NCBI GenBank assembly: GCA_038824035.1
Contig: JAWBBW010000017.1
Location: forward strand, 1 to 30,938
Reading direction: 5' to 3'
From: Desulfurococcaceae archaeon
GTDB taxonomy: Archaea > Thermoproteota > Thermoprotei_A > Sulfolobales > Desulfurococcaceae
DNA length: 30,938 bases
Shown: one piece after another, positions 7,769 through 22,855 of the stretch
Position numbering within the stretch: position 1 is the stretch's first letter
How the letters are laid out: each line of letters begins with the position of its first letter
Notes under the pieces: model-generated
What the model was told of the DNA's origin: nothing
The model's database searches: none
Seen by the model: the letters and a program-made list of their open reading frames with translations, nothing else
Made by a program: the position numbers and the translations under genes

Positions 7769-8377
7769 TCAATATAGATGGATGATGACTAGATCTTTAA
7801 TTTTGTTTAAATCATCTAATGTGTTTATATTGAATAACTCTCCACGAGGATCCTTAAACACTTGATCAACATCGAGGTACATTATTGATTCAGAGTTATT
7901 CAAACATCTATTGATACTTAATTCCCCTTTCAACAAGCATATCTCCAGTAGATCAATAGCTTTACTCCTATATATTGCGAAAAGTGGTTCTAGGTAACGC
8001 GTTGAACGCCACCTAGGTATGCACGCACTCGCTGAATTGATGCACATGGATAAAAGCCTTTTGATGCTTTCAATACTGATGAATGGTGTATCACATGCTA
8101 TCACAAAGAATTCGTTGAATATCCTTAATTGATAAATAGCTGTTAAAGGTCCAGCCAAGATATTGTCGATAATTACATTAAACCCAAGGTCAATCAGGTG
8201 ATTCGCGTTCAAGTGTGAAGCCAATACATGTATATCGGTGAATTCCCTCGACCTCTCCAATTTTCTATAAATAATCTCAAGTAATGACGTGCCACCGAGG
8301 TTGTGGAGACATTTATCAACTGAGAGCATTCTGGATGACCTACCGCCAGCCAAGATAACTGCTATCAATAAAAACAC
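7769..8377 (-). CDS. mobA: Molybdenum cofactor guanylyltransferase
   Basis: ILAGGRSSRM...DK, GPL, ACDTPF, EPLFAIY and FNINT.DD motifs. Confidence 0.92.
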   Translation of the reverse strand: MFLLIAVILAGGRSSRMLSVDKCLHNLGGTSLLEIIYRKLERSREFTDIHVLASHLNANHLIDLGFNVIIDNILAGPLTAIYQLRIFNEFFVIACDTPFISIESIKRLLSMCINSASACIPRWRSTRYLEPLFAIYRSKAIDLLEICLLKGELSINRCLNNSESIMYLDVDQVFKDPRGELFNINTLDDLNKIKDLVIIHLY

Positions 8378-8490
8378 CTGGATTACCTAATGGCCAGGGC
8401 ATTATTAAGTACAAATTTTAATATCTTGCACAACATAATATCAATGAGCTTGTAAAAATCCAGCATGTTGTGATCAAGACAGTGATCTTA

Positions 8491-9393
8491 ATGCTCATGG
8501 ATAGGTTTGGACGGGTAGTCGATAGCATTAGGATAAGTGTAACAGAGATTTGCAATTACAACTGCATATTTTGCCATAGAGAGGGGTTGATCAACTATAA
8601 TTCAAACAAAGAGCTCGGTGCAGAGGATTGGGGTTTTGTGGCTAAAGTGGCCGGTCTCATGGGCATCAAAGAAGCTAAGATAACAGGTGGTGAACCCCTT
8701 CTCAGAGCGGATATCGCTGATATCGTCAAGGAGATGAATATGAATGGATTGAGGACTTCTATGACAACAAATGGATATTTACTCCTAGAACACGCTAAGC
8801 GATTAGCCGAGGTCGGGATAGAACATATCAATGTCAATTTACCTTCGTTGAACCCGGCTTTGTATCAAAAAATAACGGGAGGGGTTTTGCATAAAGTCAT
8901 AAACGGTATTGATACAGCCCTCCAATATGGCATAGCACTTAAGATAAATTTCCTCGTTATATCGTTAAATGCCGGGGAGATCGAGAGGATCTTAGACTAC
9001 GCCTCATCGAGGAATATCGATGTGAATCTCATCGAGTTAATACCACTTGGTTTGAATAGTGATGAGTATAGAAACCTATATTATCCATTAAGCGATATAG
9101 AGAGCGTTATAAGCAAAAGAGCTGTTAAAACATGGACAAGGGAATTCCAATCCCGTCCCATTTACCAATTAGATACAGGCATCAAGGTCACCTTGATCAA
9201 AGGTTATGGAAATCCCGATCTCTGCTCCAAATGTACCAGGATAAGATTCACACCTGATGGAAGGATCAAGACATGTCTATTCATACAAGAATTCATTGAT
9301 TCCAGAAAACACATTATAGAGAGAAATTTAAACGGCCTAATGGGGGATTTCGTAAAAGCCATCACCATTAGAAGGCCGTATTTCACTAGGTAG
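8491..9393 (+). CDS. moaA: GTP 3',8-cyclase (molybdopterin biosynthesis)
   Basis: DRFGR...RISVT..CNYNCIFCH.EG, ITGGEPLLR, TTNG, and C-terminal C..C.RIR.T.DG.IK.CL. Start at 8491 or 8497 more likely than 8470. Confidence 0.93.
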   Translation: MLMDRFGRVVDSIRISVTEICNYNCIFCHREGLINYNSNKELGAEDWGFVAKVAGLMGIKEAKITGGEPLLRADIADIVKEMNMNGLRTSMTTNGYLLLEHAKRLAEVGIEHINVNLPSLNPALYQKITGGVLHKVINGIDTALQYGIALKINFLVISLNAGEIERILDYASSRNIDVNLIELIPLGLNSDEYRNLYYPLSDIESVISKRAVKTWTREFQSRPIYQLDTGIKVTLIKGYGNPDLCSKCTRIRFTPDGRIKTCLFIQEFIDSRKHIIERNLNGLMGDFVKAITIRRPYFTR

Positions 9394-9471
9394 TCTTTAT
9401 CCTGGAGACAATCTACATGCGTTGATTTTAATCAAAAGTTGACATATATTTTGATGCCGAGGGGCGAGGAC

Positions 9472-11079
9472 ATGGTCACAAGGTTTGATCTAATCATTAA
9501 GAATGGCATTGTGGTCGATGGATCCGGGTCACCGCCATTTAGGGCAGATATAGGCATCTTAGGTGATCGTATCTGGAAGATCGGAAACCTAGCTGGCTCA
9601 GAAGCAGATATCGTCATTGATGCAAAGGGATTGATGATATCGCCTGGTTTCATAGATATACATAACCATAGCGATATCTCGTTACTCGAATTACCTACGG
9701 CTGATAACTATGTCCTACAAGGCGTTACAACAATTGTCATTGGGAACTGTGGGTATTCACCAGCTCCTTTAACAGATTTGAACAGGGATGAGATTATACG
9801 TGAAGTGAAAAACATCCATCCCGATGTCCAGATCACGTGGTCTACTTTCAACGAATACTTAAACACGCTTGAAAAAACGAAGCCATCTATAAACGTCGTC
9901 CCCCTTGTAGGACATGGGACCATTAGATCAGCTGTCCTGGGTTTCGCGGATACAGTGGCAAGCGAGAGGGATATAAGCTTGATGAAGTCCCTTGTAGAGG
10001 AGGCGATGAGATCCGGTGCTTTCGGCATAAGCACAGGCCTGATATATGTACCAGGCATGTTTAGCGATAGAAAAGAGATCATCGAATTAGCTAAAATAGC
10101 CGCAATTTATCAGGGGGTCTACTTTACGCATATGAGGAATGAAGGTGTGGGCCTCGTGGACTCTGTCATAGAGGCCTTGGAAATAGGCTTAAACGCTGGC
10201 CTTGGAGTCGAGATCTCACATTTAAAAGCATGTGGTAGGCCTAACTGGGGCAAGGTCAAAACAGTTCTCGACTTAATATCCGAATATGCGTATAAGGGGC
10301 ATGATGTGAGTGCCGATGCTTACCCCTACGAAGCTTGGTCCACTTCTTTGACAACACTTTTGCCGAGTGATTATAGAAAAGGCTCGGCATCGGAGATATT
10401 GGAGAAATTGTTGAACCCCAATGCTATCTATGACATAATGAACAAGCAAAGTGATCTGGCGATAGAGGAGGGATATATCTCATGGCATGACATAGAGATC
10501 TCCTTTTCGCTGAGACATAAGGAGTGGGAAGGCATGAGGCTCTCTCAGATCGCCGAGAAGCTTGGAATAGACCCGGTTGAAGTAATGGTTAAGTTGCTCA
10601 TAGAAGACGAGTTATTAACTGAAATCGTGGGATTCACCATAAGCCCCGTAGATGTTGAGAGCGTTATATCTCATCCATTGGTGGCGATTGGTAGTGATGG
10701 CTCTATTTATAGGAAAGGAATGGGTAAACCTCATCCCAGATCATATGGCACTTTTCCAAGAGTCATAGCCAAGTTTGTCAGAGAGAAAAAGGTGATCTCG
10801 TTGCCAGAGGCCATAAGGAAAATGACATTGTTACCGGCGAGGAAACTGGGGATCTGGGATAGAGGGTTGATCAGGCCTGGTTTTAAGGCCGATCTAGTTA
10901 TATTTGACTACTACGCGATAAACGACACCGCGACATATAATAACCCTCATTCATATCCAACCGGTATAAAATGGGTCATTGTTAACGGGGAAATCGTGGC
11001 TGAGAATGGGAAAGTGTTGACCTCGGCTAGGCCGGGATCGATTCTCAGGAAAACAGCCCAATTTTTAAAAGAACTATAG
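9472..11079 (+). CDS. N-acyl-D-amino-acid deacylase (D-aminoacylase, amidohydrolase superfamily)
   Basis: PGFIDIHNHSD, GNCG, GHGTIR, STGLIYVPG, THMRNE, SHLK, GSDG and PHPRSYGTFPRV motifs. ATG at 9472 follows GAGGA. Confidence 0.9.
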   Translation: MVTRFDLIIKNGIVVDGSGSPPFRADIGILGDRIWKIGNLAGSEADIVIDAKGLMISPGFIDIHNHSDISLLELPTADNYVLQGVTTIVIGNCGYSPAPLTDLNRDEIIREVKNIHPDVQITWSTFNEYLNTLEKTKPSINVVPLVGHGTIRSAVLGFADTVASERDISLMKSLVEEAMRSGAFGISTGLIYVPGMFSDRKEIIELAKIAAIYQGVYFTHMRNEGVGLVDSVIEALEIGLNAGLGVEISHLKACGRPNWGKVKTVLDLISEYAYKGHDVSADAYPYEAWSTSLTTLLPSDYRKGSASEILEKLLNPNAIYDIMNKQSDLAIEEGYISWHDIEISFSLRHKEWEGMRLSQIAEKLGIDPVEVMVKLLIEDELLTEIVGFTISPVDVESVISHPLVAIGSDGSIYRKGMGKPHPRSYGTFPRVIAKFVREKKVISLPEAIRKMTLLPARKLGIWDRGLIRPGFKADLVIFDYYAINDTATYNNPHSYPTGIKWVIVNGEIVAENGKVLTSARPGSILRKTAQFLKEL

Positions 11080-12072
11080 ATGTATATCAAAGCTTAATTC
11101 AAACACACGATGACAGGCAACTTGATGTTCGATATCTATTTTTTCAAGCCTAGGTTCTTCGGTTTTACATTTTTCAATGGCAAATGGACATCGCGGGTGA
11201 AATCTACACCCTGTGGGTGGGTTAAGAGGGGATGGGGGTTCACCCTGGATCACGAGTTTCCCTCGCGATCTAGCGATCTTGGGATCCGGATATGGCACTG
11301 ATGAGAGCAAAAACACCGTGTAAGGATGACGTGGGTTTTTCAATATTCTCGATGCATTGCCATATTCCACTGCCTTGCCCGCGTACATAACTAATAGCTT
11401 ATCACTGATATGTTTCGCCGTGAGTAAGTCATGTGTTATGAAGACATATGTCAATTTATATTTCACTTGTAAATCCAAGAGAAGGTTTAATATCTGTGCT
11501 TGAATAGACACGTCGAGAGAAGAAGTGGGTTCGTCTAAGACAACTAGCTTCGGTCTCAATATAATCGCCCTAGCTATTGAGACACGTTGTTGCTGGCCCC
11601 CTGAGAGTTCATGTGGATAGCGATCCAGGTGTTCTTGCCCAAGTCCCACGTCTTCGAGCACTTTGATCATCATATCCATCATCTCAGCTTTATCGTTACA
11701 TATCTTGTGGATGATCAATGGCCTTGAAAGTATGTCCTTGATCCTCATGCGGGGATTTAACGAGGAGTATGGATCTTGAAATACTATCCCAGTTGATCTC
11801 CTGAACCATTTGAGCTCTTTTCCAGAAAGCTTCGTGATATCCGTTCCATCAAATATGATTTCACCGGATGTTGGTTCCACTAGTCTAAGTATTGTTAAAC
11901 CAAGTGTACTCTTACCAGAACCAGATTCACCTACAATACCTATCGTAGAGCCCTCTGGTACCTGAAAATCAACTCCATCGACGGCTTTGAGATAAGTGGG
12001 CTTGGAGAATAATCCGTGTTTAACCGTGAAATATTTCTTCAAATCCCTAACCACAAGCAGGTCCATGCTCAA
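11074..12072 (-). CDS. oppF: Oligopeptide/dipeptide ABC transporter ATPase
   Basis: GESGSGKST, LSGGQQQR, LDEPTSSLD, HPYT and GCRFHPRCP motifs. Confidence 0.93.
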   Translation of the reverse strand: MSMDLLVVRDLKKYFTVKHGLFSKPTYLKAVDGVDFQVPEGSTIGIVGESGSGKSTLGLTILRLVEPTSGEIIFDGTDITKLSGKELKWFRRSTGIVFQDPYSSLNPRMRIKDILSRPLIIHKICNDKAEMMDMMIKVLEDVGLGQEHLDRYPHELSGGQQQRVSIARAIILRPKLVVLDEPTSSLDVSIQAQILNLLLDLQVKYKLTYVFITHDLLTAKHISDKLLVMYAGKAVEYGNASRILKNPRHPYTVFLLSSVPYPDPKIARSRGKLVIQGEPPSPLNPPTGCRFHPRCPFAIEKCKTEEPRLEKIDIEHQVACHRVFELSFDIHL

Positions 12073-13047
12073 TCACCTGCAAGGACTGTAGAGATGACAA
12101 GCCACTAGGTGGTTATTGCCTAACTCCACCATGGAGGGTTCCTCTCTCCTACACCTATCTGTTGCAAATAGACATCTGGGGTGGAATCTACACCCTGTAG
12201 GCGGATTTATCAAATCGGGGGGACTTCCGGGTATTTGGCTAAGCCTAGCCTTCGGCTCTGTCCTCATTTTCACACAATCTATTAAGCCCTTTGTATACGG
12301 ATGTAGTGCGTTTTCGAACAACTCATCGACCCTTGCGATCTCCACTATTTTACCAGCATACATGACTGCGACCCTATCGCACATCTCGGCCACGATCCCG
12401 AAATTATGTGTTATCAGGATAAGTGCCAATCCATATTCCGATCTCAGATCCCTGAGCAATTCCAATATCTGTGCCTGTATGGTGACGTCCAATGCCGTTG
12501 TCGGCTCATCGGCAATTAAGAGAGAGGGCCTTGATATGGTCATCATGGCTATCATGGCTCTCTGTTTCATGCCACCGCTATATACATGTGGATAGTCCCT
12601 TGCCCTGATCTCCGGGTCAGGTATTTTAACCCTGCCCAATTGCTTAATCGCCATCTTGATTGCATCTCTCCACGATAAGTCTTCGTGGAAAACAGGTATC
12701 TCAGCCACTTGTACACCCACACGATAAACGGGGTTGAGAGAGGTCATTGGGTTTTGAAACACAATTGTTATTTCTTTTCCACGTATTTTGCGCAAATCAT
12801 CATCACTCAGCCTCAACAAGTCCACGCCTTTATATATGATCTCCCCTGAGACAATCCTGGCATTTGGCGGTAGTAATCTCGGTATTGCAAGGGCCAGCGT
12901 GCTTTTACCACAACCAGACTCCCCTACAAGGCAAAAAGCCTCGCCCTTATATACCGTAAAATTGACATTATCAACCGCTGTGAGGGCTCCTCTACTGGTC
13001 TCGTAACGCACTTTCAAGTTTTTGACTTCGAGTATCACGTCTCCCAT
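12073..13047 (-). CDS. oppD: Oligopeptide/dipeptide ABC transporter ATPase
   Basis: GESGCGKST, FQNPMTSLNP, SGGMKQR, ADEPTTALD, HPYT and GCRFHPRC motifs. Confidence 0.93.
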   Translation of the reverse strand: MGDVILEVKNLKVRYETSRGALTAVDNVNFTVYKGEAFCLVGESGCGKSTLALAIPRLLPPNARIVSGEIIYKGVDLLRLSDDDLRKIRGKEITIVFQNPMTSLNPVYRVGVQVAEIPVFHEDLSWRDAIKMAIKQLGRVKIPDPEIRARDYPHVYSGGMKQRAMIAMMTISRPSLLIADEPTTALDVTIQAQILELLRDLRSEYGLALILITHNFGIVAEMCDRVAVMYAGKIVEIARVDELFENALHPYTKGLIDCVKMRTEPKARLSQIPGSPPDLINPPTGCRFHPRCLFATDRCRREEPSMVELGNNHLVACHLYSPCR

Positions 13048-13054
13048 CTACATC

Positions 13055-13933
13055 TCACCTCAACCTGAGTTTCGGGTCCATTATATCCCTCAGCGCATCA
13101 CCAAGTAGGTTGAAGCTTAACGCTGTTAATGTGAGGAAAAGGCCTGGGAATATCGAACACCACGGTGCTATGAATATATAGTCCCTCGATTCACTCAACA
13201 TAGCCCCCCAATCAGGGGTGGGAGGTTGTGCGCCAAAGCCCAAGAAGCTGAGCGCGGTGGTGTATAATATAGCCGAGGGCACTGTGAGCGTTGCCAGTAT
13301 TATCACGGATGGTAGTACATTGGGTAGTATATACCTGAACATTATGCTGATATCGCTCTCTCCTATAGCTCTCGCCGCTATGACGAACTCTCTGTTCACA
13401 AGCGACTGTGTCTTGGCTCTCACAACCCTGGTGTACGGCGCCCAGCTGACCAATGCCACCGCCATCACTACGTTTGTTAAACCCGGGCCTATGATAGTGA
13501 CTATTGCGAGCGCCAAGACTATTGGAGGTAGAGCCCAGATCATGTCTGTGAAAGCCGAGATCACCTTGTCCACTGCACCATTATAGTACCCTGCGATCAA
13601 ACCAAGGGTAACCCCTATTAAGACCTCGATTGATACCGCGACCACGCCGACCCAGAGCGCTATTCTAGCTCCATGGATCACTCTGGTGAAAACATCTCTA
13701 CCAAGGTGATCTGTACCGAAAATGTGATTTATGGATGGAGGCAATAATCTAATGGATATATTGACCTCATCATATCTATACTGAGATATGAAATCAGCTG
13801 AGATAGCCATTAAAGCTATTATACACAATATCGCTAAGCCGATCACACCTCTCCTATGTCTTACAAACAGCTTGAAGGATTCGTTTTCATTCAAGGAGAA
13901 AACCTTGTTTCTAAGGCCTGTGAACAAGGTCAT
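13055..13933 (-). CDS. oppC: Oligopeptide/dipeptide ABC transporter permease
   Basis: HIFGTDHLGRD, EFVIAARAIG (EAA loop), LSFLGFG.QPP.PDWG and GDALRD..DPK motifs. Confidence 0.93.
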   Translation of the reverse strand: MTLFTGLRNKVFSLNENESFKLFVRHRRGVIGLAILCIIALMAISADFISQYRYDEVNISIRLLPPSINHIFGTDHLGRDVFTRVIHGARIALWVGVVAVSIEVLIGVTLGLIAGYYNGAVDKVISAFTDMIWALPPIVLALAIVTIIGPGLTNVVMAVALVSWAPYTRVVRAKTQSLVNREFVIAARAIGESDISIMFRYILPNVLPSVIILATLTVPSAILYTTALSFLGFGAQPPTPDWGAMLSESRDYIFIAPWCSIFPGLFLTLTALSFNLLGDALRDIMDPKLRLR

Positions 13934-14874
13934 GTGGATCCTCCCTTTTCAATACGTATCCTCGGATCCAGCGTAGCGACCACGAGATCGCCGAGCGTGT
14001 TGAACACCACCGTGAGGATCGTTATTATGAATACTATTCCCTGTACCACGGCATAGTCTTGCCTGACTATGGAGATATACAGCAATCTACCCATACCTGG
14101 CAAGGCGAACAGTGTTTCAATGACCACTGCACCTCCAATGAGCCAGGGTAGATCCAGGAAAAACATGACGACAACAGGCAATATGGCATTTCTGAGCGCG
14201 TGGATCATTATAACCCTGTTCCTGGGCAATCCCTTGGCCCAAGCCGTTCTCACATAATCCTCGTTAAGGACCTCTATCATCTCTGCCCTGGTCAACCTCA
14301 TCACAGAGGCCGAGGATGGCAATGCAAGTGTGAGAGCCGGCAATATTATGGAATGCGGGCCTTCATAACCAGATATCGGGAGTAATCGTAAATAATAGCC
14401 AAATAGCAACATGAGCAATAAACCAAGCCAAAAACCGGGAATAGAGTACAGTGTAATCGAGATAACCGAGGCCACGGTATCTACTAAGCTTCCTCTTTTC
14501 AACGCCGCTAATAACCCCATCATTGTTCCAAGTGTATAGGATATTAAGAGAGACATCGACATGAGGGAGAGAGTATAGGGTAACCGAGTGAGGATTAAAT
14601 AGGAGACTGGTTGACGCGTCATTATTGAGATGCCGAAATTCCCTCTCAAGATATTTGAAAGCCAATAGAAATACTGGATATAAACTGGCTTATCCAAACC
14701 CCATGTCCTTCGCAATTCCTCTAATCTCTCCTGGGATACTCTCTCGCCAGCTAATAAGAGCTGTATGGGATCTCCTGGCAATATGAACATTATGTAAAAA
14801 AGAATTAAAGTTACGCCGAACACCACTAATATGCCTATTAGCAATTTCTTGACTACATAGTTTATCAGGCTCAT
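13930..14874 (-). CDS. oppB: Oligopeptide/dipeptide ABC transporter permease
   Basis: PGDP, GLDKP..QY, EDYVRTAWAKG, HALRNA, E.LF..PGMG and LDPRIR motifs. Confidence 0.93.
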   Translation of the reverse strand: MSLINYVVKKLLIGILVVFGVTLILFYIMFILPGDPIQLLLAGERVSQERLEELRRTWGLDKPVYIQYFYWLSNILRGNFGISIMTRQPVSYLILTRLPYTLSLMSMSLLISYTLGTMMGLLAALKRGSLVDTVASVISITLYSIPGFWLGLLLMLLFGYYLRLLPISGYEGPHSIILPALTLALPSSASVMRLTRAEMIEVLNEDYVRTAWAKGLPRNRVIMIHALRNAILPVVVMFFLDLPWLIGGAVVIETLFALPGMGRLLYISIVRQDYAVVQGIVFIITILTVVFNTLGDLVVATLDPRIRIEKGGST

Positions 14875-14891
14875 TTCAATAATCCCAATCT

Positions 14892-16520
14892 CTACTTCTG
14901 TATTACCCTTGCATCGTTCAAGAAGAAATCGCCATTAGGCAACACTATTAATCCCTCGACATTCTTGTTGACAGCTAGGTAATCTTTCAAAACAAATAAC
15001 GGTATCAATGGTAAATCATCCAATAAGATCTCTTGGACTTTTGAATATACTCTACTTCTTTCAGTTACATCGACAACGCCGCGGCCAAGCTCCAGTAGCT
15101 CGTCCACCTCTGGATTGGCATAGGTATAGTTGCCTATCGTGCTGTGTACTAGGTATATCAATATATCTGGATCTGGCCATGAAAACCTCCTGAAAGCTAT
15201 TTCGAACTCCCAGTTACGCGTCATTGTTCTCACATAGTCATATGTATATTCTTTTATCTCGACATCGATACCTATTTTCTTCAATTGCGCTTGGATGAGA
15301 GGTGCCAGTTTCTTCATTGCTGGGTCATCTACAGCCGATAAAAGTGTTAACTTGAATGGAATTCCATCTTTATCCAAAACGCCATCCCCATCCGTATCGA
15401 TCCACCCAGCTTCACGTAGTAACGCCTTCGCCTTATCTAGATCATATGCATATCTCTTACTCGCGATCTCCTCTATTGTGGAGTTATAGCAGAACTGGGT
15501 AGGTGAGAGAAACGAATGCCAAGGTATAATGTTGTGATCAAGCGCGACAGCCAACTCCGTGCGGTTAATGGCCATCATTATTGCCTGTCTAACCCTGACA
15601 TCACTTAGTTTAGCATCTCTCACGTTCACCATTAAGTAATATATCCCAGGTGTGACCACTTCATATAATTTGATATTTGGATTATCCTTAAGCCTCTTAA
15701 CCATTTCCAGTGGAACACCCCTAACTATGTGGACGCGCCCAGCTTCTAATTCAGTGATCCTAGTCAAGTCCTCTGGGATAAACCTTATAATTATCTCATC
15801 TATGTATGTGTTAGGCCCCTTATTATTGACAAATGGCAAGTTTGTCTTATAATAGTCATTTCTAATTAGGGTTACATGAGAGCCCCTAACCCATTCCTTG
15901 ACTTTATACGGCCCGCTTCCCACGGCTTCTCTGCCAAAAGCCTCATCCCCTATTTTCTCAGCTAGATACGCATTGACAGGCGCCCCATATGCTGTCACGA
16001 GCACGCTCCAGATATATGGAGCCGGCCTACTGAAAATCAATTTCAATGTATAATTATCCACAACGACTATTTCTTTGACATCTGCAAAATCCTCGGCATA
16101 TGGTGATATCTCTATGTAGCGTTCAATGGATTTCTTAATGGCCTCTGCTGTGAGTGGGTCCCCGTTGGAAAACTTCGCGTCTTTCGGCAAGTGAAATGTG
16201 ATGGTGAGGCCATCTTCGCTGACCTCCCATTTAACCGCTAGATCTGTCACTATGTTCATATTCTCATCTAGGGCAACTAACGGTTGATATAGCAACGCGT
16301 GAACCTCGTTCGCCCATGTAACTTGTTGAATATCTAGTGATGATGGTTCCTCGGGTATAGCTATCACCAATGTCTTAGCATATTGAACAGTTGGTTGCTG
16401 AACAGTTGGCTGGGCCGTTGGCGCTAGGTTAACATAGATCAGGTAGGCCGATACAGCGACGACTACGACAATCGCGATTAATATTACCGCAACGGGTTTT
16501 AAGGCAAACTTCTTGCTCAT
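14892..16520 (-). CDS. oppA: Peptide ABC transporter substrate-binding protein (family 5)
   Basis: N-terminal TM anchor and PTAQPTVQQPT linker; KFSNGDPLTAE, VGSGPYK, VRQAI..AINR and Y..P..D.LL motifs. ATG at 16520 (MSKKF) preferred. Confidence 0.92.
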   Translation of the reverse strand: MSKKFALKPVAVILIAIVVVVAVSAYLIYVNLAPTAQPTVQQPTVQYAKTLVIAIPEEPSSLDIQQVTWANEVHALLYQPLVALDENMNIVTDLAVKWEVSEDGLTITFHLPKDAKFSNGDPLTAEAIKKSIERYIEISPYAEDFADVKEIVVVDNYTLKLIFSRPAPYIWSVLVTAYGAPVNAYLAEKIGDEAFGREAVGSGPYKVKEWVRGSHVTLIRNDYYKTNLPFVNNKGPNTYIDEIIIRFIPEDLTRITELEAGRVHIVRGVPLEMVKRLKDNPNIKLYEVVTPGIYYLMVNVRDAKLSDVRVRQAIMMAINRTELAVALDHNIIPWHSFLSPTQFCYNSTIEEIASKRYAYDLDKAKALLREAGWIDTDGDGVLDKDGIPFKLTLLSAVDDPAMKKLAPLIQAQLKKIGIDVEIKEYTYDYVRTMTRNWEFEIAFRRFSWPDPDILIYLVHSTIGNYTYANPEVDELLELGRGVVDVTERSRVYSKVQEILLDDLPLIPLFVLKDYLAVNKNVEGLIVLPNGDFFLNDARVIQK

Positions 16521-16628
16521 GGTATATACCCATGCTCCTTTATAATGGAACAGTCTTTTAATTGTTGTGTTAAACATGGAACAAATATTAAAATAATCGT
16601 TCTATTTATAACAATTTATCCCTGGATA

Positions 16629-18005
16629 TCACCATCCAGTCATATATTCAAGCACTTGATCCGGTATTCTGCCCTCTTCTGTGTCCACTACAGCGCTCTC
16701 AATGGTTTCAAGCGCTTTATCGACATCCTCCCCCGGTATATTCAAGGGAGGGGCTATCCTCACAACATTTCCATTAACACCTACTGTTAATAAAATAACC
16801 CCTCTTTTCCACGCACTCCAAATGACTTTTAATGCCATTGGCTTAGATGGTTCTTTGCATGACTTATCCACGACTATTTCTAATCCCAGTAACAACCCTT
16901 TACCCCTGACATCGCCCACGATCTTGCTTCTACTCATGATCTCTGAGAGCCTGTTGTATATGTACTCTCCGAGAACGCGGGCCCTTTCAACCATGTTTTC
17001 TTTTTCAATGACCTCGAGCGTGGCTAGGGCTGATACCACTGAAACAGCATGGCCAGAGAGTGTGAACGATAGTCCAACCGGTGGGAGAGAATCCAATATT
17101 TCCTCACGACCTATTACAGCCGATATCGGCATTCCACCTCCTAGCGCCTTGCCGGTCACGATGATATCTGGTTCAACGTCGAAGTGTTGAATAGCCCACC
17201 ATTTACCGGTTCTCCCAATACCTGTTTTAACCTCGTCAACTAGTAACACGATTCCATATTCATGTGCCAATTTATGTAGTCCTTGAACGAAATACTTGGG
17301 TGGCACTACTATCCCACCATCACCTTGAATGGCTTCTAGGGTTATCACGGCTATCTCTTCATTAAGTTTCCTCAATGCTTTCTCAATGTTATTCAAGGCC
17401 ATATTGGATAGGTCAACTGGGTTTTCATATCCATTTATACCCCATGGATTCCTATATGGATTTGGATATTCAACTAAAACCACGTCGTTTAAAAGCATAA
17501 ACGTATTCCTAATTTTCTCATTGTAAATTCCAGATGCCGACATCGACAAATATGTTGAACCGTGGAAAGAGCCTTTGAATGCCATTATATATCTCCTACC
17601 ACTATAAGCCCGTGCAATCATCAACGCTAGATCCATTGCATCAGACCCGGAAAAACCAAATAGAACTTTTTTCCTGAATGAACCGGGCGTGATCTCTATT
17701 AATTTCTTAGCAAGTAGACACGGTTCCTCCGTGTAAAAATAAACCATGGGATATACGAGGTATTTGTCGAGTTGTCTTGAAACAGCTTCTACGATTTTTC
17801 TATGTAAATGCCCGATGTTGAAAACAGCTGCCCCGGATACGAAATCTATGTACTCATTGCCATTGATATCAACGACTCTTGAACCCCTGCCTTTGGCGAT
17901 TACTAGTGGATAATACTTTAGAAAAGCGCATTTCGGAAATACTTCGTTACTTAACCTGAGGATGTCCATGACCTTGCTGGATCCTAAATAATCTTCAACG
18001 CTCAT
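16629..18005 (-). CDS. Class-III PLP-dependent enzyme, probable broad-substrate amino acid racemase (BAR-like)
   Basis: Fold-type I class III motifs (D..GN.YIDF, SGSDA, FHG, DEV.TG.GRTG, GKALGGGMP). EAIQGDGG has Asp229 rather than the transaminase Glu; Lys286 binds PLP. Strong recalled resemblance to Pyrococcus horikoshii BAR (KYYP.VI, YRN.WGI.GYE.P..L, GRIPD.V.....W). Confidence 0.8.
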   Translation of the reverse strand: MSVEDYLGSSKVMDILRLSNEVFPKCAFLKYYPLVIAKGRGSRVVDINGNEYIDFVSGAAVFNIGHLHRKIVEAVSRQLDKYLVYPMVYFYTEEPCLLAKKLIEITPGSFRKKVLFGFSGSDAMDLALMIARAYSGRRYIMAFKGSFHGSTYLSMSASGIYNEKIRNTFMLLNDVVLVEYPNPYRNPWGINGYENPVDLSNMALNNIEKALRKLNEEIAVITLEAIQGDGGIVVPPKYFVQGLHKLAHEYGIVLLVDEVKTGIGRTGKWWAIQHFDVEPDIIVTGKALGGGMPISAVIGREEILDSLPPVGLSFTLSGHAVSVVSALATLEVIEKENMVERARVLGEYIYNRLSEIMSRSKIVGDVRGKGLLLGLEIVVDKSCKEPSKPMALKVIWSAWKRGVILLTVGVNGNVVRIAPPLNIPGEDVDKALETIESAVVDTEEGRIPDQVLEYMTGW

Positions 18006-18661
18006 TTGGATCCCTTGTTAGATAACTAGACCTGGGTGTTATAAAATAATAGTTTTATCCAAGAACGAGCTATCAACAGCATATCTGATATCCGGCTAAC
18101 CACGAGAACGCATCATAGTTGTATCCAATACCTTATTCACTAAGCAATGTTTTACGAGACAGGCTCCTTGTCCGCACATGGTTATAGTCGTTGTAATGAT
18201 TGACACCATGGCCAAGAAATATATCCTCACTAATCTCTTCAATTTGGAAATAAATGACCATAGTAATAGGAAATAATTGAACCGTATATTGCCTAGAAGT
18301 ATGGAATACTGGTCATTTAAAGGATTATCACTTAGTGAGTAAAGCGGTGATTGGATTTAAATAAAACCCGATATATTGCATAATTATATCACGTTGCTCG
18401 GGAATACCGGTTACTGATCTACTCAGTTGGTTTAAAAGAGTTTTCAATGTCGATCCCCATACACATAATTCCATATCCATCGGCTCCACAGATCTATGTA
18501 TCAAATCCCTATGAAGACCTTATGGGAATCCCCAGGATATGTTTCCATTGAATGGTTCCAAGATATTTATACTTTCCAGCATAATCATTGAGAGTAAGTA
18601 AAGGATATGTGGAAAAGTAAAAAATAAATACTAAATTACCTGGTTTTCACGTGTCTTTTAC

Positions 18662-19504
18662 CTAGGCTATGCTGTATGGGTAAAGCCTAGGGGCGGCTGT
18701 CACTAGTAATTCAAATATTTTATATGCCTCTATAATGTCCTTTGCAACGTATTTCACGGTCTTACCATCTATTCTCTTGACAATAGGCAATAACTCAGCT
18801 ATATCGGCCATTTCTGTGCCGAGAAATCTGATTTTCACTTCAACTGGGTATTGCGTTTTCAACGTTTTCATCTCTCCTTGTTTAAACCTGAGTACAGCTC
18901 TCTCTACAGCATTCTCCAATTCTATCTCCACTTTCTTCATGCCTTGGCTCATAGAGGCAAACCTTGAAAGAGAACGCTTCAATACCACTTTCTCAGCCCA
19001 TGGCGTGTATTTGGACACGTCGCCTTCTATTAAACTCGCATCCCCAGCCACCAGAACTACTGGGACATTGAAATGCCCAGCTACATATGTGTTCAATAAA
19101 AACTCGCTAACCGGTATATCATTTACTTCTACACTGTCTATTACAGCGCTACTGTATGTATGGTCAAAACTGGATCTCGGTGTTCCAGCTTTCGCGTGAT
19201 AACCTAGGAACACTGCTATATCTGATCCCTCTACGCCCGTCATCATGCTGACCGGCCTGGGGAACCCCCTTATCAACATGACGTATTCGGGTAAATCATC
19301 GACTTCAAGCCCGATCATCGGACCATGGCTATCAGCTATCACTATTTCATCAAATCCATTCTTATGTAAAGCCCTAGCCACGATCAACGCTATCTTCGTA
19401 GTTATTCGTCGCGCTTCATTGAACAATACACCTTTTAGGAAAAGGTGTTCGCCTGAAGCAATGAAGGGCATGCCCTCCATATCCACTGATATAAATGCCC
19501 TCAT
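18662..19504 (-). CDS. dppA: D-aminopeptidase, peptidase family M55 (Bacillus DppA-like)
   Basis: FISVDMEG, DSHG, GYHAKAG, HTYS, SEFLLN and V.GD motifs. Confidence 0.92.
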   Translation of the reverse strand: MRAFISVDMEGMPFIASGEHLFLKGVLFNEARRITTKIALIVARALHKNGFDEIVIADSHGPMIGLEVDDLPEYVMLIRGFPRPVSMMTGVEGSDIAVFLGYHAKAGTPRSSFDHTYSSAVIDSVEVNDIPVSEFLLNTYVAGHFNVPVVLVAGDASLIEGDVSKYTPWAEKVVLKRSLSRFASMSQGMKKVEIELENAVERAVLRFKQGEMKTLKTQYPVEVKIRFLGTEMADIAELLPIVKRIDGKTVKYVAKDIIEAYKIFELLVTAAPRLYPYSIA

Positions 19505-19555
19505 ATTTTCACCAAGTGATATATATGGTTCATTAAGGGAAAAAAGATATGGTGA

Positions 19556-21000
19556 TCATTTCTCTCCGCTTTTCTTAGTCCCATATATTTCATCATAGTA
19601 TTCGCCGAGAAGGCCTCTCGCAACCCGTTCTACTCCGACTTCTTGTATCCTCTTTCTGACATAGACCGTGTATATTAAGATACCAAGCAATACCCAGGCA
19701 ATCAATAGTACATATTCATATGGCCAGACAAGGCTGATATCGGTGCCCGGTATTATCGGCATCAACACAACTATTAATCCTACTATTAATGCTATGCCTC
19801 CGATTACAAACGGGGCTGGAACTGAGAAAGGCCTCTTTAAGTGTGGATATCTCCTCCTACATATCAACATTGATAAAACAGCTGTTAACCAGCAAACACC
19901 GAGAGCTACACCACCTATATCTAGGAACCACACTAGGCCTTTCCTACCCAGTAATCCAAGTATCATTGAGATCACTAGTGTGAACAAGAGGGCCCGTGTT
20001 GGAACACCGTATTTAGGATGTATTGATTCAAATTGCTTGGGGAATAAAGCTCCACGCGATAGAGCGTAGATCATCCTTGACGTAGTCATCATTGCAGGTA
20101 TCCAAGATGTCACCAAGCCCAGGAATGAGGCAAGTCATGCAATGATCCCAAGGCCTGGGTAAACGATATTTAACTCGTCTATTAATCCACGAGGAGCTAT
20201 CTCCGAGGAACCTTGCCATGGTATTATGAGCGCGCCGGCAAACATCATCAACATATACCAGCAACCAGCTAATACGGCGCTGAGCGCGACTAGATAGCCG
20301 AATTTCCTGACCTCTACTTTGGTCTCCTCAGCGATCATGGGTAGGGTTTCAAAACCCGATAAATAACCTATACCCATTAATGCGAACCTGAACGCAGCGG
20401 TGGCTGGACTTATCTCTGATTTGAATGGAGGCGTGAAATTATCCAATGAGCCGCGTAATGCGGCAACGCCTATTACCACTAAGCCACAGAACAAGAGGAG
20501 GATAAAGAGGGCTGTCTGGATATGTCCAGTTAATCTCACGCTGAAATAGTTCATGGCAAAGACTATTAAAGCCCCTATATAGCCCACTATTATCCATGGG
20601 AGATAACCGGGAACCCTGCTACCTCGTAAAGTGGTATGGTGTTTAGCTGTGGAAAGATCCAACTTAACAGAAATGGTAAGCCAATCACATAGAATGAGAG
20701 AGCGGCCGCTAACATGCCTAGTAAGAACATCCATGCTATGAAGAACGAGCCAGTGGCACCTATAGCTGGGTATACGAAGGCCACTTCACCACCCTCTCTT
20801 GGAATAGCAGTTGACATCTCAGAGTAGGCTAAGGCTATCAGAGATGCCATGATAGTAGCGACGAAGTAACCTAGGATTACTCCACCGGGGCCATAAAGGT
20901 CGTAGAATGTGGTGTTCAGGTATACCCAGCTTGTCCCTACTATACCGGCAACTCCTAGGGCTAGTACATGGTATCATTCAAGGACTCTCTTAAGAGACAT
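19556..21000 (-). pseudogene. APC-family amino acid permease, disrupted
   Basis: Reconstructed from ATG at 21000: MSLKRVLE*YHVLALGVAGIVGTSW... In-frame TGA at 20974-20976; 1-nt deletion near 20605 (FPV/YLPW); second in-frame TGA at 20135-20137 (GIIA*LASFLG). APC motifs AYSEM..AIP.EGG, GFET....AEE, SRM.YAL.R..LFP.....HPKYGVP and RPF.VP are present. Confidence 0.9.
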
Positions 21001-21179
21001 TATCCCCCTAGATAATTTATAAAGGTATATTTTTTAAAGCTTTCTATAAAATTAGATTCCACATTTTTTAAATGTCGTGAATATAGATCTATAGTTCTCT
21101 ATAACGAACTAGAGGGAATTTTTATGAAACGAGAAGATATATTAATGGCTCTAAACATATCCCAGCTAGAGGGGTTCAT

Positions 21180-22214
21180 ATGTCTAAACCCATTCTCTCT
21201 ATTCCATCAATAGATCTGCATGAAGATGTATCAGCGTATTACCTCTATCATGGTGGTGGTTCACCGCTCGGTGATTTCGGAGAAGATATACCTGGCCGAG
21301 ATGCCGATATACCTAAGTACAGGAGAGCTGGTGTGAAAGTGGTTTTCTCAGCTATATTCCCAGGTATCGAGAGTTTCAGCCCAGAGGAATCGAGGGCTCT
21401 TCTAGAGCTATATGGTAAATGGCTTCCAGCTACGAAATACAGAGTTCCCCAATCCATTCTCTGGGAGCATTTCTTAATTTACTATAAAATGGCCGAGGCT
21501 TATGGCATTAAGATAGTCGAGTCGATGGCTGATATAGAGCACTGCTTGAGGAATACTGGTATCTGTTTTGTCTTACATTTAGAGGGGGCCGAACCAATTG
21601 ATGATCCCTATGACCTGGTTCTCCTGAAAAAACTCGGTCTAAGAAGTTTAGGTATAACTTGGAATTATCAAAACAAATATGGCTCTGGATGTGCAGCGAG
21701 AAAAGACCTTGGGCTGACAAGTGACGGGGAGGAATTAGTTAAAATGGCAAATAAATTAGGTATTATAATAGACCTGGCCCATGCCAGTAAAAGAACAGCC
21801 TTAGACACATTAGTCATCAGCAAGAAACCCGTGATCATAAGTCATGCCAATATCAGGAAATTCGTAGATAGGCCTAGAAACGTTGACGATGAAATACTAG
21901 AAGCCCTTAACAAAAATGGCGGGGTGATAGGTATCTCGGTTATAGGCCCACTTATCTCGCAAAGGCCTAGGTCAACGTTGGATGAGCTGGTAGAGCACTT
22001 CGCCTATGTCCACGAAACCTATGGATCACATCTACTCGCTATAGGCACTGATTTCCTCGGTTTACTGGGTCTACCGGCGCCAGAGGGTTTTGAAAGCATT
22101 GATAAATTACCAGCACTTTACGCTAAGCTCGTTGAAAAAGGGTTTTCGGAAAACGATTTGAAAAAAATAGCGTATGAAAATGTCCTCAGAGTTCTAAAGG
22201 CTAATTTCGGGTAG
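21180..22214 (+). CDS. Membrane/renal-type dipeptidase, peptidase family M19
   Basis: DLHED, LHLEG, G.TWN..N, DLAH, SHAN, RN.DD and GTDF motifs; ends with ENVLRVL. Confidence 0.9.
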   Translation: MSKPILSIPSIDLHEDVSAYYLYHGGGSPLGDFGEDIPGRDADIPKYRRAGVKVVFSAIFPGIESFSPEESRALLELYGKWLPATKYRVPQSILWEHFLIYYKMAEAYGIKIVESMADIEHCLRNTGICFVLHLEGAEPIDDPYDLVLLKKLGLRSLGITWNYQNKYGSGCAARKDLGLTSDGEELVKMANKLGIIIDLAHASKRTALDTLVISKKPVIISHANIRKFVDRPRNVDDEILEALNKNGGVIGISVIGPLISQRPRSTLDELVEHFAYVHETYGSHLLAIGTDFLGLLGLPAPEGFESIDKLPALYAKLVEKGFSENDLKKIAYENVLRVLKANFG

Positions 22215-22470
22215 ACTTGATATATTATTTTTCCATCAAACCCTGTATAACCGGTTCCTTGTCCTATGAAAGATGTGTTTTCAAAATAAATCATTAACCA
22301 TCCTGATTCATTCCGCTAAGCAATATGATGCTTAGAAAAACAAGATCTCGTGTCAAGAACATATGTAGATCCTTGAAGGGGTCTTTTATCCCCGAAACCG
22401 GGAAACTATAGGCAGGGAGATGGGGTTTCTCTAGCGCTATTTACGTCAAGGGACCTAGGCAAGAATCTAT

Positions 22471-22855
22471 TCAACGTATTACCTCGTCACAATAAATGAG
22501 GCTTAAGCATGCTGAGACCTTCTCTACGAATACATACCGGATCAGTGGATCAAGGGCCAAGTTCATCGAGAACGCCCGCCTTTTACACGAACCACGCATG
22601 ACCATTACCAGGTATCGATAAGAATCACGTGATAAGCTCAGCGTATCGATGTCATACCTGGACGCTTTCAAAGCTCCCAGGAGATCTTCGGTAAATTTGT
22701 AGAATGTAGTAGTGATCTATGCAGATATTCCAAGGATGCAGGGGATGGATATGTGTGACTTTATAGAGAATGTTCAGATCCAGAGAACTATGGGAAATCC
22801 AAGACTGTTTTTGCCTAAAACATCTAAGATCGTTTCCTCTGGGAAGGAATAACAA
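22471..22855 (-). pseudogene. Possible decayed gene of unknown family
   Basis: One minus-strand frame reads protein-like across two stops: YSFPEETILDVLGKNSLGFPIVLWI*...*ITTTFYKFTEDLLGALKASRYDIDTLSLSRDSYRYLV... No family recognised. Confidence 0.3.

Follow-up and report, generated by a model that had tools for sequence, protein, structure and literature searches.

The contig JAWBBW010000017.1 of a Desulfurococcaceae archaeon (assembly GCA_038824035.1) carries, at positions 9439-22214, a locus that was read as a Desulfurococcaceae-like version of the Pab87-type gene set for D-peptide and D-amino-acid scavenging, built from two modules; judged from its sequence, this reading has about an even chance of being correct. 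The contig, contig 17 of the genome under study (G000; 1.33 Mb, 99.7% complete, with Desulfurococcaceae/Thermosphaera-like archaea as close relatives), was analyzed over its full 30,938 nucleotides, hereafter the window. Genes were called from an open reading frame listing together with Pfam and NCBIfam scans, and the locus was found to encode a D-aminoacylase-like amidohydrolase (DAA), the ATP-binding cassette (ABC) importer OppABCDF, a pyridoxal phosphate (PLP) enzyme, an M55 peptidase, a broken amino-acid permease of the APC family and an M19 dipeptidase. An earlier note on the stretch 9472..22214 had named the same genes and seen in them a pathway for D-peptide salvage; each gene was recovered where the note had placed it, the family assignments proved right, and alignments showed that all catalytic residues are intact in DAA, the PLP enzyme, M55 and M19. 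The interpretation given in that note is partly supported.

The locus was compared with the surroundings of Pab87 in Pyrococcus abyssi, a D-stereospecific S12 protease (Delfosse et al. 2009, PMC2651629). According to the accessible part of that paper, the Pab87 gene is neighbored by the genes of a PLP aminotransferase (PAB0086), a D-aminoacylase (PAB0090) and a dipeptide ABC transporter (PAB0091-95), and the processing of bacterial cell debris containing D-amino acids was proposed. When 99 genomes of the order of one such locus (L018) were sampled, DAA homologues were found in six, of which five were examined and G306 was left out. The gene order in G310 and G315 is PH0137-like gene, BAR (the racemase discussed below), Lrp regulator, Pab87-type protease, DUF819, DAA and OppABCDF; G370:C402 and G390:C120 carry Opp, DAA and the Pab87-type protease, and L018 (G304) an Lrp gene followed by SSF symporter-DAA-BAR. 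For DAA and OppA to OppF of the G310 locus, the best match in G000 always fell within the window, at 36-57% identity: the window DAA is the best G000 match to the DAA of the Pyrococcus-like locus, OppF is the best match to its OppF (57% identical), and OppD is 53% identical to its OppD. The reverse search, made with the window DAA only, gave a single match in G310, at the Pab87-type locus.

The two loci thus share a core of a BAR-family class-III PLP gene, a DAA-family amidohydrolase and OppABCDF, and the hypothesis published for Pyrococcus, environmental D-peptide use by a murein-free archaeon, is alike as far as the accessible text of PMC2651629 goes. The earlier note knew of no description of these genes as one cluster, but the core of PLP enzyme, DAA and dipeptide ABC transporter is already listed for P. 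abyssi in that text, and the gene order is present in G310 and G315. The two loci differ in several respects. In the window, the place of the Pyrococcus S12 protease is taken by M55 and M19; the PLP paralogue heads the Opp operon, whereas Pyrococcus has BAR with its own transporter and Lrp; an APC permease stands in for the DUF819 and PH0137-like membrane proteins; and the DAA gene is convergent to the Opp genes instead of lying upstream of them. Neither an S12 Pab87 protease nor an Lrp regulator lies inside the window locus. A Pab87-type S12 "CubicO" protease of G000 is encoded on contig 1 in an unrelated context (L132, G000:C1:115047-116444). A DUF1028 protein with a putative peptidoglycan-binding domain (119110-120036) is encoded about 2.7 kb from it.

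The left module consists of the PLP gene, the Opp genes and DAA. On the minus strand the PLP gene (16629..18005) comes first and ends 51 nt before the gene of the OppA-type substrate-binding protein (14892..16577; SBP_bac_5, 295 bits), which is followed by the OppB-type permease (13930..14874; BPD_transp_1 and BPD_transp_1_N), the OppC-type permease (13055..13933; BPD_transp_1 and OppC_N), the OppD-type ATPase (12073..13047) and the OppF/DppF-type ATPase (11074..12072), the last two each with ABC_tran and oligo_HPY domains. Because the 51-nt gap is followed by Opp genes spaced by 0-17 nt or overlapping by 4 nt, PLP-OppABCDF is one operon, in which the gene set of an Opp/Dpp family-5 importer is complete (binding protein, two permeases and two oligo_HPY ATPases). 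OppA has a hydrophobic segment at residues ~28-47, an N-terminal membrane anchor, and its best solved relatives bind peptides, nickel or opines. Some archaeal family-5 ABC systems transport sugars; sugar import by the window Opp system was rejected, no sugar binder being among the solved relatives of OppA.

The DAA gene (9439..11079, plus strand; Pfam Amidohydro_3) starts with TTG at 9439, its homologues aligning from an ATG at 9472, and converges on OppF with a 6-nt overlap at the OppF end. The best PDB relatives of the protein are the D-aminoacylases 1rjp and 1m7j (E 3.5e-86), with which it shares the fold family and the catalytic residue set, whereas identity is moderate and the window protein has a longer insertion between residues 304 and 362. 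Six aligned positions (His-x-His, Cys, His, His, Asp) are conserved with respect to 1m7j and 1rjp, and their metal-binding and catalytic roles are assumed to follow the Alcaligenes enzyme. The YPY ligand-binding motif named for D-aminoacylases (PMC12149444, in its accessible part) is kept as well, DAYPYEAW in the window being aligned to DAYPYVA.

The class-III (fold type I) PLP enzyme (minus strand; Aminotran_3, 333 bits) scored highest among the structures compared against BAR (9wrf, 536 bits), ahead of an Ala/Ser racemase (366), an Ile 2-epimerase (356) and the aminotransferase-labeled 7vno (317). It aligns end to end with 9wrf, including the GKALGGG stretch that holds the Schiff-base lysine, and shares 51% identity with P0052 of P. 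horikoshii, which was taken as BAR because it gave the same 536-bit score as 9wrf. A QGD motif (EAIQGDGG) is present in the window enzyme, in all three solved racemase or epimerase relatives compared (BAR, Ala/Ser racemase, Ile 2-epimerase) and in 115 of the 120 listed homologues, whereas QGE stands in both aminotransferase-labeled structures compared (7vno and 2eo5) and in a G000 paralogue on contig 3. The Asp of QGD is presumably the second catalytic base, as in related racemases.

In a maximum-likelihood tree of 31 rows, from which the named Ala/Ser and Leu/Met racemases were left out, the window enzyme fell into a 12-row clade (96/99) of Desulfurococcaceae-like sequences; its sister, a 15-row clade (86/83), holds Pyrococcus, Thermococcus, Fervidicoccus, Synergistetes and contig 16 proteins and the P. 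horikoshii protein. The product of a contig 16 gene of G000, which is adjoined by a PH0137-like membrane protein gene, shares 72% identity with the BAR-like protein of G310, against only 52% for the window enzyme. By these sequence comparisons, the window enzyme is a BAR paralogue and not the closest BAR relative in G000. The assignment to a BAR-type racemase in the earlier note therefore held for the QGD motif and for BAR as closest solved relative, but the gene is a paralogue and the closer relative lies on contig 16. A search for loci related to the PLP gene was pattern-based and missed the Pyrococcus BAR genes; most of its 80 loci were distant bacterial aminotransferases without relevant neighbors, and only the closest loci were used.

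The BAR cluster of P. horikoshii comprises the PH0137 transporter, the PH0138 racemase and the PH0140 Lrp-type regulator DARP (Kawakami et al. 2026, PMC13628549), and the BAR part of the G310 locus is this cluster. According to the accessible text, BAR allows D-amino acids to support growth, and D-allo-Ile induces it; peptidases, an aminoacylase and ABC transporters are not mentioned in that text. Both loci pair a fold-type I PLP racemase-family gene with a D-amino-acid uptake system, putative in the case of the window. The true counterpart of the P. horikoshii cluster in G000 is, however, on contig 16, and the window gene is a sister paralogue tied to an ABC peptide importer, with no linked regulator.

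The right module is separated from the PLP gene by an AT-rich spacer of 656 nt (18006..18661), which has a TATA-like stretch about 35-45 nt upstream of the PLP gene start. The spacer was taken as non-coding because it holds no open reading frame of at least 60 aa, Rfam and tRNA scans of the window gave no match, neither blastn nor tblastx found a similar sequence elsewhere in the genome or in the fetched loci, and 1-nt indels occur in it between sibling strains. A gene remnant or repeat in the spacer was unsupported, given the lack of blastn or tblastx similarity.

The M55 (DppA-type) metallopeptidase (18662..19504, minus strand; PF04951, 272 bits against a cut-off of 25) has a single PDB relative, Bacillus subtilis DppA (1hi9; E 8e-27, full-length alignment), and its Asp, Glu, His, His and Glu positions, assumed to be zinc ligands, are conserved with respect to 1hi9. 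The M19 dipeptidase (21180..22214, plus strand; PF01244, 270 bits against a cut-off of 26) is divergent from the permease gene and shares with solved M19 enzymes the fold family and the catalytic residue set at moderate identity. Its Glu, His, His and Asp align to PDB M19 dipeptidases and an N-terminal HxD (DLHED) is present in the sequence; these positions presumably serve as binuclear-metal ligands, after renal dipeptidase. No substrate data for any archaeal DAA or M19 member were found in the literature. The APC-family amino-acid permease gene (21000-19556, minus strand; AA_permease fragments) is found 51 nt upstream of M55, in the same orientation, and is a pseudogene in this strain. Compared with intact orthologues of 476 and 486 aa, it has a TGA at 20976-20974 (codon 9), a frameshift near 20604 and a second TGA at 20137-20135, which bears out the earlier statement that the permease is broken. 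Both TGA codons are at conserved Trp positions; recoding of TGA as Trp was rejected, since the gene ends in a TGA of its own, carries an additional frameshift and has TGG in sibling strains.

DAA and M19 are single-copy in G000, as is M55 barring a short remnant on contig 10. A rough post-hoc estimate of all of them lying by chance within 13 kb of a BAR-like gene was ~2e-5. Chance is an unlikely explanation of the clustering, because the genes are single-copy, the estimate is low and subsets of the cluster recur in other lineages. The remnant (L002, G000:C10:8562-8759) encodes 67 aa with an in-frame TAA and may be what is left of a second M55 type, ~40% identical to the window M55. A match to M55 was found in 14 of 16 genomes of the genus, most of which carry the second type.

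The recurrence of the modules was examined in 31 close genomes, whose fetched regions were screened by local tblastn and Pfam. The left module recurs in the window order, PLP-OppABCDF-DAA, in G006:C5 at 63-73% identity, and parts of it are present in G003:C30 (DAA beside OppABCDF), G006:C2 (Opp-DAA) and G005:C36 (PLP and DAA fragments). With loci from outside these 31 genomes included, a PLP/BAR gene lies beside DAA in G006:C5, G005:C36, G272:C39, G287:C19 (L019) and L018, and DAA lies beside Opp in G003:C30, G006:C2, G370:C402 and G390:C120. M55, APC and M19 occur together in G010:C25 (72-90% identity), G068 and G028. The right half of the window is repeated exactly in G068 (M55-APC and divergent M19), with a frameshifted BAR-family gene adjoining it, while G028, which belongs to another family, holds within 6 kb a BAR gene, a diaminopentanoate-dehydrogenase-like gene, M19, APC and M55, so that a BAR-family gene adjoins M55/M19 in two different families. 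DAA and M55 are 5 kb apart in G029, with a DAO-family oxidoreductase gene between them, and M19 stands beside APC without M55 in G073.

Several further neighborhoods were noted in these regions. The DAA gene of G006:C5 is followed by a second DAA paralogue, an Asp/Glu/hydantoin racemase gene and a saccharopine-dehydrogenase-family gene (L097:439-2650). The Fervidicoccus-like locus of G028 (L003/L004, G028:C1:851041-862000) has arginine deiminase and ornithine carbamoyltransferase genes after M55, and its dehydrogenase is of the 2,4-diaminopentanoate type; this neighborhood hints at a link to ornithine/arginine fermentation. In G005:C14 (L014:910-9530), another OppABCDF operon is preceded, at a distance of 2.8 kb upstream, by the C-terminal fragment of a window-type M55 (62-69% identity). 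BAR-family genes elsewhere often neighbor amino-acid permease genes, and in L012 (G003:C53:1-6100) and L124 (G086:C10) they adjoin genes of an MttB-family methyltransferase, a corrinoid protein, MtrH and an amino-acid permease. Some members of the BAR family may act in methylated-amine or betaine metabolism.

Across an evenly drawn sample of 301 genomes of the class, matches to the BAR-like protein (E<=1e-120) were found in 32, to M19 (E<=1e-40) in 127, to DAA (E<=1e-60) in 66 and to M55 (E<=1e-60) in 54. Pairs within 20 kb were counted from the match coordinates among the genomes that hold both members, the counts being lower bounds because of fragmented assemblies. Co-localization was thus found in at least 3 of 18 genomes for BAR and M19 (G000, G028, G068), 3 of 10 for BAR and DAA (G000, G272, G287), 3 of 10 for BAR and M55 (G000, G028, G068), 4 of 25 for M55 and M19 (G000, G010, G028, G068), 2 of 29 for M55 and DAA (G000, G029) and 1 of 36 for M19 and DAA (G000).

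The scavenging reading was favored because BAR-family genes stand beside M55/M19 in G028 and G068, because a DAO-family gene lies between DAA and M55 in G029, and because a D-specific protease adjoins the matching DAA-Opp unit in Thermococcales. Also counted in its favor were the conserved catalytic positions, the QGD motif, the operon geometry, the match to the G310 unit, the role of BAR in growth on D-amino acids, the recurrence of the modules and the Pab87-type gene on contig 1 of a genome in which no Mur ligase was detected. According to the mechanism proposed, membrane-anchored OppA together with OppBCDF would import short peptides that bear D-residues, or N-acyl amino acids, derived from bacterial wall debris or heat-racemized protein. 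No hydrophobic N-terminus was found on DAA, the PLP enzyme, M55 or M19, and these proteins should for that reason be cytoplasmic. There, DAA would remove acyl or aminoacyl groups from a C-terminal D-residue, M55 would remove N-terminal D-residues and M19 would split Xaa-D-Xaa dipeptides. The BAR-paralogue PLP enzyme, co-transcribed with the importer, would then racemize the D-amino acids to L-forms, which could feed fermentation or protein synthesis, and free amino acids would enter through the APC permease of the second module, an activity absent from this strain. Two modules, each transcribed on its own, would have been combined in the locus: PLP-OppABCDF and its convergent DAA on one side, M55-APC and its divergent M19 on the other. 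In this scheme the D-stereochemistry of the substrates, the D-to-L direction of racemization and the cooperation of the modules are what we infer. The earlier note took the organism to lack murein; no Mur ligase was detected in G000.

Strain variation was followed on contigs from three hot-spring DNA runs, one from each of three studies, and from one RNA-library run (X10), all placed on positions 9000-22500; the runs that hold the window sequence are hot-spring metagenomes. Contigs span the OppA-PLP, PLP-spacer-M55 and APC-M19 junctions, and as these bridging contigs stem from three separate studies of metagenomes, the gene order does not result from a chimeric assembly. X1, X2 and X10 have a C at 20135, which restores TGG, and an extra base after 20604, and X3 is the same as the window. 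As three runs differ at two of the lesions and X3 agrees with the window, no fewer than two of the three lesions in the permease gene are peculiar to this type of strain. One X2 contig passes directly from 9299 to 11820, the two sides having 9 nt in common where they meet, which amounts to a deletion of 2520 nt that removes the MoaA 3' end, the whole of DAA and most of OppF; no depth was seen across the deleted part in this run. The permease lesions together with the X2 deletion indicate that the locus is being lost piecemeal in the hot-spring population. From X10, contigs ~97% alike covered OppA, M55-APC and the M19 end and hardly PLP or DAA; RNA-library contigs are no proof of transcription and missing cover is no evidence, and co-expression was not concluded.

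Several observations weigh against the scavenging reading. All enzymes score under the NCBIfam equivalog cut-offs, so that only family-level names are justified: the best model for DAA was PRK09061, "amidohydrolase family protein" (217.5 bits against a cut-off of 340), the PLP enzyme reached 491 bits against 608 for BAR (NF006228), 418 against 800 for Leu/Met racemase and 378 against 639 for Ala/Ser racemase, and M55 reached 158.9 bits against 430 for Bacillus DppA. The PLP enzyme belongs to an uncharacterized paralogue clade, the D-specificity of M55 rests on a single characterized relative, and among solved enzymes M19 is closest to GliJ, a dipeptidase of the gliotoxin pathway, and not to the L-Xaa-D-Xaa dipeptidase 3id7. 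No Lrp regulator is encoded on the window contig; four AsnC-type regulators of G000 are on contigs 6, 10, 11 and 14. The earlier note had spoken of a complete pathway, and the gene families for it are present, but the permease is broken here and a sibling strain has lost DAA and most of OppF with its 2520 nt, which suggests weak selection. It had also suggested a search for co-localization in archaeal genomes and regarded scattering of the genes in relatives as a counter-argument. Subsets of the modules do recur, but pairs co-localize in only 1-4 of the 10-36 class genomes that have both, and all four enzymes stand together in only 1 of the 301 (G000). The genes are in this sense partly scattered: close M55 orthologues lie in unrelated contexts in G073, G294, G204, G206, G245 and G036, and M19 orthologues do so in G009, G012, G013, G023, G024 and G227.

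One rival explanation is that the locus serves the ordinary peptide and amino-acid catabolism of a peptide fermenter, with import of L-peptides, general exopeptidases and amidases, a PLP enzyme active in catabolism, and stereochemistry not as the organizing principle. The shortfall against the equivalog cut-offs extends to every protein of the locus, M19 and M55 are common in the class (127 and 54 of 301 genomes) and mostly away from racemase or DAA genes, the solved relatives of OppA are generic peptide, nickel or opine binders, and BAR-family genes also stand beside methyltransferase and corrinoid genes. This explanation was nevertheless considered rather unlikely. The PLP enzyme has the racemase-type QGD and BAR as its closest solved relative, the DAA-Opp unit adjoins a protease type of experimentally established D-stereospecificity in four Thermococcales genomes, and a BAR-family gene recurs beside DAA or M55/M19 in separate lineages.

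A second explanation accepts D-substrates for the left unit, PLP-Opp-DAA, and regards M55-APC-M19 as a separate unit for amino-acid and dipeptide uptake that was joined to it accidentally by rearrangement. The 656-nt non-coding spacer with its separate promoter-like stretch between the units is consistent with such a join, as are the units standing alone in relatives (the left in G006:C5, the right in G010:C25 and G073), the usual position of M19 beside a cation-efflux gene in the same genus, and the lesions of the two units, which differ between strains. The BAR-family gene directly beside the right unit in G028 and G068, the sole characterized M55 relative being a D-aminopeptidase, and the DAO-family oxidoreductase gene between the DAA and M55 genes of G029, 5 kb apart, speak against it, and an accidental join was judged unlikely. 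A nickel or metallophore importer, with the racemase-like and amidohydrolase genes making or recycling a D-amino-acid chelator, is very improbable. In its favor, the nearest NCBIfam models for OppB, OppC and OppA are components of nickel transporters, namely Opp2B (307 bits against a cut-off of 350), Opp2C (288 against 300) and NikA (170 against 393), with the nickel/oligopeptide permease model NikC also near OppC, and several NikA structures are among the OppA matches. None of these models reached its cut-off, however, and AppA, which binds oligopeptides, is among the solved proteins closest to OppA. Genes for opine or nicotianamine synthases were not found in the window, and both the annotation of the matching unit in Pyrococcus and its discussion in PMC2651629 make it a transporter of dipeptides.

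A wider form of the scavenging reading is possible, although it leans toward the doubtful side: peptide-fermenting hyperthermophiles may share a modular, horizontally exchanged D-peptide toolkit with a stable BAR-DAA-Opp core and swappable peptidases (S12 versus M55 and M19), in which the window PLP enzyme would found a second racemase subfamily. Such a subfamily would so far be confined to Desulfurococcaceae-like genomes and wired directly to peptide import, and at high temperature D-residues from bacterial walls or heat-racemized protein would then belong to the regular nutrients.

Bacterial systems provide a further comparison. The dpp operon of B. subtilis combines the D-aminopeptidase gene dppA with a dipeptide ABC transporter, and ddpXABCDF of E. 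coli combines a D-Ala-D-Ala dipeptidase with a D,D-dipeptide ABC transporter. Both link a D-specific peptidase to a family-5 peptide importer for the salvage of wall-derived D-peptides, as proposed for the window. The bacteria, however, recycle their own murein with operons that lack a racemase and a D-aminoacylase, and the window M55 is in a different transcription unit from Opp. No paper describing the window arrangement was found in the literature search, supplements being outside its scope. Among the results on the four enzymes together, on M55 or M19 in archaea and on D-aminoacylase in hyperthermophiles, only the Pab87 paper was relevant, and the accessible sections of the reviews PMC8142540 and PMC12363236 contain nothing on such clusters.

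Both the idea and the core genes are already in print (2009, 2015-2026). New are the M55/M19/APC module in place of the S12 protease, the distinct racemase-family paralogue heading the importer operon, and the occurrence in a terrestrial Thermoproteota lineage. The handling of D-amino acids by murein-free archaea is partly understood, the Pab87 protease and BAR/DARP having been studied, both in Pyrococcus. OppA, DAA, the PLP enzyme, M55 and M19, five soluble thermostable proteins, form a compact set for a study of stereospecificity, and the sibling strains are natural knock-out variants. If the enzymes are D-specific, D-peptide scavenging extends beyond Thermococcales and the enzymes would be useful for D-amino-acid biocatalysis; otherwise, database D-labels on the archaeal M55, M19 and DAA families call for more caution.

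The locus is flanked on the left by formate dehydrogenase, MobA and MoaA genes and on the right by unassigned genes. The molybdenum-cofactor genes MoaA and MobA lie at 7769-9393 of the window, and MoeA- or MogA-type domains were also found near BAR, DAA or M55 genes in L119:79-2256, L098:9875-11407, L010:4677-5447 and L011:2766-3518. The proximity of molybdenum-cofactor genes to BAR, DAA or M55 across several lineages may reflect chance or old synteny.

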